Below are positions 36,027-38,616 of a stretch of 43,311 bases of DNA, piece by piece. This stretch comes from a virus (lineage: Duplodnaviria > Heunggongvirae > Uroviricota > Caudoviricetes): positions 1 through 43,311 of the IMG/VR virus record IMGVR_UViG_2537561670_000003; one strand, written 5' to 3'. The position numbers were made by a program, and so were the translations under genes. Under the pieces are notes generated by a model that saw only the letters and a program-made list of their open reading frames with translations, ran no database searches and was not told the origin of the DNA. Within the stretch, counting starts at the first letter, position 1. Each line of letters begins with the position of its first letter.

Positions 36027-36746
36027 ATGACAACTATGCCTTGTGCGCTTAATCTTCTACTTATGGTGGAAAATGCTAAATACAAAGACTTTGCCGAAAG
36101 GCTAAACAGGTCTCTCCAAGAGCAATCTATTGGAGTTAAAGAATTGTCAGAGTTCAGTGGTGTCTCGTATGAGATGGCGCGGCGCTACACTCTTGGTACT
36201 GCAAAGCCGAGAGATGAGAAGATGATTCGAATTGCAGAAAGACTTGCCGTCTCACCGGCTTATCTTGATTATGGTGTGCCTGTTAATGGTGGCGACGCGC
36301 CAGCCAAAGGCACGGTCAGAATAGAGCAATTGGATGTTCATGCTTCAGCCGGTTCCGGATATATAAACCAACCATTCCCTACAATAGTGAGCTCAATAGA
36401 GATTCCAGAAGAGAGGATCTTCGAGTTGTTTGGTCGTAGAAGCCTTGATGGCATCGTCATGATAAATGTTGATGGCGATAGCATGATGCCCACGCTTTGC
36501 CCAAAGGACCTGCTTTTCATAGACAGCAAGGTTGAACAATTCAGCGGCGACGGCGTTTATGTGTTCAATTTTGAAGACAGTACGTTCGTTAAACGTTTGC
36601 AGAAGGTAAAAGGGCGCCGACTGGCAGTTCTTTCAGACAATGAACATTACCCGCCCTTCTTCATAGAGGAGCATGAAATGAATGAACTATACATATTCGG
36701 CAAGCTAATCAGATGCTTACCTCTAAAAATGATAGAGTTTGGCTAA
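36027..36746 (+). CDS. cI: CI-like prophage repressor (HTH plus S24 LexA-like autopeptidase domain)
   Basis: C-terminal domain has catalytic GDSM and a downstream Lys (...VDGDSMMPT...FVKRL...). The ATG at 36027 has no SD, as with the leaderless lambda cI. Confidence 0.85.
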   Translation: MTTMPCALNLLLMVENAKYKDFAERLNRSLQEQSIGVKELSEFSGVSYEMARRYTLGTAKPRDEKMIRIAERLAVSPAYLDYGVPVNGGDAPAKGTVRIEQLDVHASAGSGYINQPFPTIVSSIEIPEERIFELFGRRSLDGIVMINVDGDSMMPTLCPKDLLFIDSKVEQFSGDGVYVFNFEDSTFVKRLQKVKGRRLAVLSDNEHYPPFFIEEHEMNELYIFGKLIRCLPLKMIEFG

Positions 36747-36799: not shown

Positions 36800-36972
36800 C
36801 CTCACCTCATAACACTACACTACTAAAAATTTCATTTTCTACTTTTTGTTGTTGCAATTATCTACTTAAAGTAGCTATAGTCATTGCATCGAAAGCGAAC
36901 AGGCAGGACGCCCACGAAGTAGCCGCCGGTGGCATATGAATAACCGGATGATTCGCTGACAGAAAACTTAGG
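36800..36972. promoter_or_regulatory. OL/pL-like operator-promoter region
   Basis: Repeated CTACT half-sites and the palindrome CTACT-TAA-AGTAG (~36862-36874) matching the OR motif; upstream of the plus-strand early-left operon. Confidence 0.4.
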
Positions 36973-36990
36973 TTGGGGGTAGAGGTTTAC

Positions 36991-37356
36991 ATGAATCATT
37001 TATTCACATGCTCATTTTGCGGAGCAACCGAACTGGGAGCGATAAAGATCGTCGCAAAAGGTGGTAAGGACGAACCTGCCATCTGTTCGGAATGCGTAGT
37101 CACATGTGTAGAAAAAATGATCCTGACTAAAAAATCAGAGGCTGAAAAACCAACCTCTGATAACGAAATAATATCAGTCGATAAAAAACTATTTAAAGAG
37201 CTTCTTCAGCTTGTCCTCAACCTTCCTGATTTCGGAAGTAAGCTGGCTGCTGTTGACATTGATAGTAGCTCCACATCGACAAGTGAAACTTTTGTTCGAC
37301 TTGAGCCAAGCGATTTTCTTCTTCGTCTTAGTGCCGCACTTAGGGCATGCGGGTAA
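36991..37356 (+). CDS. Small protein with ClpX-N-terminal-type zinc-binding motif (first gene of the pL-like operon)
   Basis: ...FTCSFCGATELGAIKIVAKGGKDEPAICSECVVTC... resembles the ClpX zinc-binding domain CSFCGK...YICDECV (recalled). AGAGG SD upstream of the ATG at 36991. Confidence 0.5.
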   Translation: MNHLFTCSFCGATELGAIKIVAKGGKDEPAICSECVVTCVEKMILTKKSEAEKPTSDNEIISVDKKLFKELLQLVLNLPDFGSKLAAVDIDSSSTSTSETFVRLEPSDFLLRLSAALRACG

Positions 37357-37386
37357 CGTAATTTCCTGGTTATCAAAAGCGCCCAT
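37189..37386 (-). CDS. Putative small zinc-ribbon protein encoded antisense to the 3' end of the preceding gene
   Basis: C-x2-C-x17-C-x-C (CPKCG...CRCG) and AAGAGGG SD 6 nt upstream of the second ATG. Overlap with the plus-strand ORF makes it uncertain which is real. Confidence 0.35.
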   Translation of the reverse strand: MGAFDNQEITLPACPKCGTKTKKKIAWLKSNKSFTCRCGATINVNSSQLTSEIRKVEDKLKKLFK

Positions 37387-37698
37387 AAACATCCCTCTTG
37401 GTTGTGTGAGAACACCAAGATACCACCGCGCCTGATGTGGTTAAAAGCAGGCTAAAGCAATAACAAGTAACTCCCTGTTCTGGCGGCCCGGTGTTTTCCC
37501 GTGTATTTCCGGTAACCGCCAGCCTTTTTCAGGGCACAACAGAAAAGGGCATCACCGGGCGACGGGCTCATAACCCAATCCACCCGGGCAAAAAGAAAGC
37601 GGTCTCTGCAAGCCGCCGACCAATGCAGGTGCCCTTCTCTGTTGTGTATGGAGAAACTAACTTTTTAGCGTCTGTGCAGATGCGCTGAGGAACCGAGA

Positions 37699-38616
37699 AT
37701 GAATAATCCGTTTTTCAAAAATATGTTGGTGTATCGCATTAGTCGCGATTTCACCATCAACCAGGAAGAGCTGGAACAGCAGCTTGAACTATTTCGCTTC
37801 ACTCCATGCGGTAGCCAGGATATGGCAAAAACCGGTTGGGTATCACCACTTGGTCAGCTGTCAGATCGCTTGCATCACACTGTCAATAATCAAGTGTTGT
37901 TGGTTATTCGCCGGGAAGAAAAAATACTGCCATCTCCTGTCATTACTGAAGAACTGCGCAAGCGTGTGTCGCGTCTAGAATCCGATCAGGGGCGTCGCCT
38001 CAAAAAAACTGAGAAAGATTCGCTGCGTGATGAAGTGTTGCACTCCCTGCTTCCTCGGGCGTTCTCCAAAAACTCGACTGTTGGTTTGTGGATCAACGTC
38101 ACCGACGGTCTGATCATGGTTGATGCAGCCAGCGCTAAACGTGCCGAAGACTCACTGGCCCTGCTTCGTAAAACTCTCGGTTCTCTCCCGGTGGTACCGC
38201 TGACTATGGAAACGCCGATCGAACTAACTATGACCGACTGGGTTCGTTCCGGTAGTGCGCCTGCTGGCTTTGGCCTGGGTGATGAAGCCGAACTGAAAGC
38301 TATTCTTGAAGATGGCGGTATTGGACGCTTTAAAAAACAGACTCTGGTCAGTGACGAAATTCATGTGCATCTGGAAGCTGGCAAAGTAGTTACAAAGCTG
38401 TCTATCGACTGGCAACAGCGCATTCAGTTCGTTCTTTGCGATGACGGCAGCATCAAACGCCTTAAGTTCTCTAATGAGATTACAGAACAAAACGACGATA
38501 TCGACCGTGAGGATGCGGCTCAGCGGTTCGACGCTGACTTTGTTCTGATGACCGGCGAGCTTATCTCTCTCATTAACGGATTAACAACCTCTCTCGGCGG
38601 CGAAGCCAAGCGATAA
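37699..38616 (+). CDS. rdgC: Recombination-associated protein RdgC homolog
   Basis: 305 aa, near-collinear with E. coli RdgC (recalled), e.g. ...[15 protein letters not shown]...[10 protein letters not shown]...; GAGGA SD. Confidence 0.9.

Follow-up and report, generated by a model that had tools for sequence, protein, structure and literature searches.

The subject of this article is a 43,311-nucleotide stretch of virus DNA, IMG/VR record IMGVR_UViG_2537561670_000003 (Caudoviricetes), which I will call the window and in which the pL operon of a lambdoid prophage of the Escherichia coli Nissle 1917 type appears to open with a compact pair of convergent genes. One partner is an annotated plus-strand open reading frame (ORF) with a ClpX-type zinc finger, and the other is an unannotated zinc-ribbon gene on the opposite strand, here called ZR. 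The interpretation that I consider probable, with real room for doubt, is that a convergent zinc-ribbon cassette has been overprinted by the C-terminal tail of the first pL gene, a portable module under weak selection. Positions 36960-37420 of the window are 100% identical to the Nissle 1917 prophage, and the locus is carried by 39 of 5,426 complete E. coli genomes. The elements of the pair are these:

36991-37356, plus strand: the plus-strand ORF, 121 amino acids comprising head, linker and tail, ending in TAA at 37354-37356
37006-37113, plus strand: the head, residues 6-41, a ClpX-type C4 zinc-binding domain (Pfam PF06689, phrog_5259)
37192-37353, plus strand: the overprinted tail, residues 68-121, codon for codon opposite ZR codons 12-65
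37189-37386, minus strand: ZR, an unannotated 65-amino-acid C4 zinc-ribbon gene, ATG at 37386 and stop TAG at 37191-37189
37393-37399, minus strand: the ZR Shine-Dalgarno sequence AAGAGGG, read from the sequence
37125-37161, minus strand: the predicted ZR intrinsic terminator, a 12-base-pair stem-loop at 37161-37134 and then a U-run, lying within the plus-strand linker
37397-37444, minus strand: the ZR upstream region, with a hairpin CTTGGT/ACCAAG, an inverted repeat ACCAC-N10-GTGGT and a candidate extended -10 promoter

ZR is the better constrained of the two. The minus-strand frame is open from 37392/37386 to 37189, and the second ATG, at 37386, stands 6 nucleotides from AAGAGGG and gives the 65-residue product; a preliminary description of this DNA had rightly pointed to the well-spaced Shine-Dalgarno sequence, the ORF and its four cysteines, and had only miscounted the middle of the ribbon as 17 residues, since the actual arrangement is C14-x2-C17-x18-C36-x-C38. 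Related loci were collected by two routes, one through the plus-strand protein and the other independent of the plus-strand ORF, by tblastn searches of genome, viral and metagenome collections with ZR as query, and the resulting sample comprises 17 DNA variants from a few clades. In all 17 distinct variants ZR is intact, with identical start, stop and length, and its cysteines are invariant save in one (L034, which carries C36Y at a zinc ligand). The sole broken allele has a 1-nucleotide deletion at about codon 12 and occurs in two contigs (L040, 3001-3194; L056, 2001-2194), where the plus-strand stop is lost as well and the plus-strand protein grows by 31 residues. Variable columns number 31, 16 and 47 at ZR codon positions 1, 2 and 3, and the ratio of nonsynonymous to synonymous divergence (dN/dS, Nei-Gojobori, all 21 pairs) is 0.09-0.32 in the ZR frame versus 0.44-4.3 in the plus frame, a frame-by-frame comparison that had been suggested at the outset and that speaks against a spurious antisense ORF.

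Furthermore, ZR has a great many relatives. An exhaustive phmmer search returned 331 clusters at E<=1e-3 (best E 3.7e-15), mostly full-length proteins of 62-76 residues whose matches cover ZR residues 2-63 and share the invariant columns C14, C17, C36, C38, K23, W27 and G39 (alignment A3), and the homologs examined are free-standing genes in the early or immunity regions of phage contigs. AlphaFold2, given the single ZR sequence, predicts a zinc ribbon that leads into a C-terminal helix (residues 46-64) with a mean predicted local distance difference test score (pLDDT) of 79.5. Full-length similarity, the conserved residues and this helix place ZR in what is, by these comparisons, a large unnamed family of phage zinc-ribbon proteins of about 70 residues. 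Gene callers report ZR in one cluster among 5.8 billion, and PGAP, at the identical Nissle 1917 locus, calls just the plus-strand ORF at 36991-37356, as "ClpX C4-type zinc finger protein"; ZR is almost never called because the plus-strand ORF is longer. Judged on constraint and homology, ZR is a real, strongly constrained and older gene that annotation pipelines miss. As to what it does, a function could not be read from the fold, for which Foldseek returned just generic ribosomal zinc ribbons (E>=0.09), and the PADLOC defence models match neither ZR nor its relatives nor the plus-strand protein.

The signals around ZR are also conserved. Its Shine-Dalgarno sequence is retained in all variants although the spacer length varies; the terminator begins 27 nucleotides past the ZR stop and folds at -22 kcal/mol (z = -4.3, from terminator scan and folding), every variant has a hairpin at that position, and the variant stems stay paired through G-U pairs that are possible on the minus strand only. 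Upstream, about 60 nucleotides are kept in 9/9 aligned representatives and the flanks diverge, and the candidate extended -10 promoter, TTAACC-16-TGgTATCTT on the minus strand, is present in all variants, from which I infer that this region acts as a promoter. The promoter-like region, Shine-Dalgarno sequence, ZR and terminator would thus form a self-contained cassette on the minus strand, directed against pL. Prophage morons, as conceived by Hendrix and Juhala, are autonomous promoter-gene-terminator units, and the ZR unit is likewise compact, with its own terminator and a candidate promoter, and sits in opposite orientation within an operon; unlike intergenic morons, it lies inside the coding sequence of a neighbouring gene.

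That neighbouring gene has an open frame from 36973 to 37356 and a likely start at ATG 36991, behind GAGG at 36982-36985 with a 5-nucleotide spacer, a start on which PGAP agrees. The preliminary description had placed it as the first gene of the pL operon, and its position directly after a LexA-type CI repressor gene and a pL-like promoter bears this out. It had also compared the motif CSFCG...ICSECV to the zinc-binding domain of ClpX, and this likeness holds: the motif supplies C7, C10, C32 and C35 as a complete CxxC...CxxC ligand set, Pfam zf-C4_ClpX aligns to residues 6-41 (E 7.6e-6; 26.2 bits against a gathering score of 27, i.e., 0.8 bit under), the PGAP product name says the same, and 6/6 sequence matches of the protein in the Protein Data Bank (PDB) are ClpX zinc-binding domains (E 0.15-1). 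Structure prediction goes part of the way, in that the top Foldseek match is again a ClpX zinc-binding domain (2ds6_A, E 0.4, template modelling score 0.52, 33% identity), obtained with a head model of beta-beta-alpha layout and low confidence (pLDDT about 60). Compared with the N-terminal domain of ClpX itself (PF06689; PDB 1OVX, 2DS5-2DS8), the head has the same CxxC...CxxC, CSFCG and IC-EC-V signatures, but it is a free domain of 45 residues without the AAA+ module, scores just below the Pfam threshold and separates its cysteine pairs by 21 residues, against 18 in E. coli ClpX. Profile searches found no AAA+ module after the finger in the 121-residue protein, so that the head is a free zinc-binding domain and not a ClpX unfoldase, and the same finger protein is found free-standing, at 61-66 residues, in the same slot of Salmonella phages. 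Neither this head nor ZR arises by chance. The idea that the head acts as a decoy for ClpX adaptors or substrates such as SspB and lambda O, carried over from the preliminary description, is a reasonable speculation. A literature search turned up nothing relevant on a ClpX-finger phage protein, on this antisense pair or on the function of YnfU, a small zinc-ribbon protein discussed below.

The coding overlap of the two genes spans 37192-37353, or 54 codons, and is directly complementary, with codon position 1 facing 3 and 2 facing 2 (antisense frame 0 in what follows). The C-terminal 65 or so residues of the plus-strand ORF are found again at the C-terminal end of proteins that are not otherwise related. 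Heads of at least six unrelated families carry this tail, all joined in antisense frame 0: phrog_5259 (the ClpX finger), phrog_2790 (an AlpA helix-turn-helix, with two linker types), phrog_1273, phrog_1744 (alone or with a 100-residue insert), phrog_21096 and phrog_28225 (a weak match), and there are two nearly head-less forms in addition. These head families are normally whole proteins of 56-103 residues. PHROG 20296 (121 positions), which 36991-37353 matches, is effectively built on the fusion seen in the window, and its C-terminal half reaches unrelated proteins only through the tail that mirrors ZR, which shows how an antisense gene can contaminate a protein family.

All ZR loci of the Enterobacterales group, also those that were found independently of the plus-strand ORF, have a head joined on in one identical frame. 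Distinct combinations of head and linker imply about eight independent junctions, and for 8/8 of them to fall in one of three frames has a probability of about 1.5e-4, or about 4e-3 if two frames are acceptable. A more distant ZR group represents the ordinary state, in which a convergent helix-turn-helix gene ends at its own stop in another frame. The distant ZR genes in L058-L060 (46-48% identity) also lie under an antisense frame-0 ORF, of about 108 residues, which has an ATG of its own and spans the gene completely, and their convergent helix-turn-helix neighbour ends separately in another frame. Within the fused group, the 10-25 linker codons outside ZR have stayed free of stops in every lineage, and the eight linker codons just past the ZR stop vary at plus-strand positions 1, 2 and 3 in 4/8, 4/8 and 8/8 cases and isoleucine is written ATA, ATT and ATC. 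Similarly, ZR Leu11 is TTA or CTA in all variants, codons that together make up 11% of phage leucine codons and that provide the plus-strand stop. Lastly, locus L062 (583-861, plus strand) holds a tail-only ORF of 92 residues with a strong Shine-Dalgarno sequence, GAGGGGGG, and ZR antisense to it, the surroundings of the module being different there, with a LysA-family gene ahead of it and an HNH gene behind.

Selection on the tail was assessed with a null model that moves only ZR-synonymous single-base changes (kappa 3.4, from the data). Such changes are more conservative than expected for plus-strand frame 0 in 12/12 pairs (mean z +1.74), and the control antisense frames 1 and 2 give mean z of -0.47 and 0.01 over all pairs; in five phylogenetically independent pairs, frame 0 reaches a Stouffer z of +3.2 (Fisher P 1.9e-4), compared with z of -0.1 and +0.2 (P 0.8 and 0.4) for frames 1 and 2. 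The bias survives exclusion of Lys, Phe and Glu codons. ZR lysine codons are AAG in 9/12 cases versus 36% in the phage (P = 0.007), which makes the plus strand read Leu instead of Phe, and avoidance of homopolymer runs could explain part of this preference. An intermediate randomisation, the second of three, was dropped for inflating divergence at non-synonymous sites and was replaced by the ZR-synonymous null, and the synonymous-site test on the distant L058-L060 genes is not significant (z -0.7 to +1.2) and underpowered. Both ORFs are intact across the 17 variants, with the 1-nucleotide deletion allele as the only exception, and I would provisionally conclude that purifying selection acts in each frame of the pair, with a weak signal in the tail. 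The preliminary description had asked whether these were antisense overlapping genes or one spurious ORF, and the balance tips toward real overlapping genes, unevenly so, with strong evidence for ZR and a tail that is mostly its mirror under weak constraint.

Put together, the sequence of events that I propose begins with a first pL gene that, in these Enterobacterales prophages, would have lost its own stop, so as to read past the ZR terminator and then across ZR in the complementary register until a TAA or TAG made by the ZR Leu11 codon ends the frame. The tail of about 65 residues would then be an overprinted extension, most of its sequence dictated by ZR, and would serve as a portable C-terminal module on interchangeable heads, the head in the window being the free ClpX-type domain.

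Several results weigh against this account and need to be considered together. Four distant ZR genes that stand alone have antisense frames 0 and 1 open over nearly their whole length, and their frame-0 peptides resemble the tail (ELVVRLEPTDRLRRLAAALGAG compared with ETFVRLEPSDFLLRLSAALRACG), so that openness and most of the tail's conservation are by-products of ZR. The tail dN/dS ranges, pair by pair, across values near 0.5-1; from an alignment of 12 sequences AlphaFold2 models the tail with low confidence (pLDDT 40-63); among the five independent pairs, one points the opposite way; the first and cruder randomisation, in which codons were redrawn by usage, was mostly non-significant; and 17 variants from few clades are a small sample for dual-coding statistics. 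On the side of the cassette, the candidate ZR promoter is a sub-threshold match (8/12, against a scan cut-off of 9/12), and ZR finds no family above threshold in Pfam, NCBIfam or PADLOC. Three lines of argument were given up along the way: the stop-freeness of the antisense frame as a selection signal (the distant ZR genes are open too, and the probability under a ZR-only null is 0.6-1.0 per pair), the tail similarity as independent evidence of a domain family (the antisense strands of unrelated ZR genes look alike), and any fold assignment for the tail (a low-confidence model, with Foldseek matches limited to the head).

The explanation that profits most from these results, and which I take seriously as a less likely possibility, holds that ZR and the ClpX-like head alone are functional and that the tail is harmless junk, the plus frame running on since the complement of a Lys-rich, Leu- and Ser-poor gene has no stops. 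The open frames and tail-like peptides of the distant ZR genes, the high chance of a stop-free frame, the relaxed dN/dS and the poor structural confidence are all what it predicts, and the free-standing finger proteins of the Salmonella phages work without a tail. It leaves unexplained, however, why at least six unrelated head families should have lost their own stop and entered ZR in one identical frame, why the linker outside ZR gains no stop, why Leu11 remains TTA or CTA, why the bias of ZR-synonymous changes is confined to frame 0, and why a tail-only ORF with a strong Shine-Dalgarno sequence of its own exists. For these reasons I still think, on comparative grounds, that the tail is translated and weakly selected.

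A bolder proposal is that the tail, as the codon-complementary mirror of ZR, works together with ZR and may bind or antagonise it; I regard this as rather unlikely, but if it were true, the first pL protein would neutralise a zinc-ribbon factor of the lysogenic state, or be checked by it, and phages would have fitted many different heads with the tail as a portable tag for interaction with ZR. Less likely again is that the minus-strand unit is chiefly an RNA similar to OOP, converging on the pL transcript to control downstream early genes, with the protein secondary. The layout recalls pO-oop/cII, with a short convergent unit that has its own terminator over the 3' end of an early gene, and the conserved upstream region contains two hairpins, but the constraint at the protein level, the invariant cysteines and the breadth of the protein family indicate that the peptide is selected; roles at the RNA and the protein level would not exclude each other. 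Finally, the choice of PGAP and nearly all gene callers, by which the 121-residue plus-strand gene is the sole real gene and the minus-strand ORF a chance mirror, is scarcely credible and already contradicted by the ZR-frame dN/dS, the peak of variability at ZR third positions, the 331 clusters of free-standing homologs, the Shine-Dalgarno sequence and terminator that ZR has for itself, and its confidently predicted fold.

Returning to the overprinted cassette, a regulatory consequence can be imagined. In a lysogen, CI would repress pL and ZR would be expressed from its own promoter, and upon induction a strong pL transcript with 290 nucleotides of complementarity to the ZR messenger RNA would silence ZR as the head-tail protein is made, such that the two proteins would mark opposite states. 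The tail module might serve on its accessory heads for oligomerisation, as a degron or for interaction with ZR. This lysogen/lytic switch is pure inference, and it counts among the weaker points of the account.

The surroundings of the pair are arranged as follows, beginning on the side of the immunity region:

Minus strand: a Cro-like gene and a YmfL/CII-like gene, at the start of the gene order around the plus-strand ORF
36027-36746, plus strand: a LexA-family CI repressor gene, followed by a terminator
36852-36881, plus strand: a predicted pL-like sigma-70 promoter, TTGCAA-18-TATAGT, found by promoter scan 3' of cI and its terminator
36896-36960, plus strand: a structured leader RNA of 65 nucleotides (covariance-model match 36883-36968) at the 5' end of the pL transcript
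Between the plus-strand ORF and rdgC: a non-coding spacer of about 340 nucleotides
37699-38616: rdgC, the next gene past the spacer

The promoter lies where the annotated arrangement of cI and terminator in SfII would place it. At the first pL position, where lambda has N, Pfam and PHROG profile matches reveal no N-family homology, and in related prophages the gene in this position is exchanged among unrelated families (AlpA helix-turn-helix, coiled coil and others), a free exchange which argues that the position encodes an accessory rather than a core N-like function. The slot around this gene hosts other minus-strand cargo in relatives, namely two genes in Salmonella phage F1055 (L043, 2762-3595), a gene of 153 residues in L008 (3843-4304) and, between cI and the head, a 293-residue gene with a weak BRCT match in L002 (1914-2795). 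Convergent accessory genes thus seem to have a hotspot here.

The leader RNA deserves attention in its own right. It has three helices with 14 pairs, 12/14 of which show compensatory double changes, and it is present in 51 phage records, in each case in the interval that separates cI from the first pL gene, among them SfII, SfV, SfIV, ST64B, mEp237, SPN3UB, ZF40, YeP1 and Aeromonas pAEv1818; it is also found in the terminal repeat of the T5-like Providencia phage PR1. Rfam has no match for it, and the covariance model finds no second copy in the window and nothing in the 23-33 kb region of HK022, which disposes of it as a homolog of HK022 put. I would regard it as a candidate put-like antiterminator or other leader element. 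The spacer before rdgC contains, within 37393-37698, a terminator-like hairpin (CTGGCGG...CCGCCAG, then CCTTTTT) at 37480-37529 on the plus strand, and its part from 37421 to 37655 is common to phages Flotzy, LLS, phiNP and Eeyore at 81-86% identity. Leader RNA and hairpin together hint at RNA-based antitermination in place of N.

How does all this compare with what has been described? Lambda OOP RNA with cII and P22 sar with ant are convergent antisense units, and the ZR unit is similar in being short, in having its own terminator and in lying over the 3' end of an early gene; it differs in coding for a conserved protein on the antisense side and in overlapping a sense segment that is apparently an overprinted tail. 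Among small C4 zinc ribbons of prophages, YnfU (NF038384; Qin prophage) and Lar/Ral (PF14354) come closest to ZR at about 55-65 residues, but ZR falls outside both, with 16.9 bits against the YnfU cut-off of 36 (its relatives score 15-25 bits) and 17.7 bits against the Lar gathering threshold of 28.6, and it has a distinct conserved N-terminus (FDNQ-I-LP-C), W27 and the C-terminal helix. Antisense overlapping genes have also been proposed in E. coli O157:H7 (e.g., PMC9927249), where the embedded ORF is, as a rule, of recent origin and confined to few taxa. Those cases likewise involve long ORF pairs on opposite strands of one locus in an enterobacterial genome, but here it is the embedded gene that appears old and widespread, and the novelty is the tail of the annotated gene, found on many unrelated heads. 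The locus is therefore a variation on known phenomena, namely morons, overprinting and convergent antisense control, and not a new category, and it is a rare and well-supported candidate for genuine antisense dual coding.

For the biology of these phages, a conserved unannotated gene is added to a prophage of the probiotic strain E. coli Nissle 1917, and a nameless family of some 330 clusters of small phage zinc-ribbon proteins is defined. The locus also illustrates how the preference of gene callers for the longer ORF can leave an old gene concealed by a read-through tail of younger date, and how such a tail then becomes a spurious-looking "domain" common to unrelated proteins, as in PHROG 20296. 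Comparison across variants indicates that a widespread unannotated small gene overprinted by the tail of an annotated gene is real, and the dual-coding statistics are provisional. The pair offers a clean genetic handle, with the ZR start codon outside the plus-strand ORF and the plus-strand linker outside ZR. If the tail is functional, this would be among the better-supported cases of natural antisense overprinting in bacteria or phages, and the convergent layout beside pL suggests that these prophages may have in it a simple lysogen/lytic toggle.

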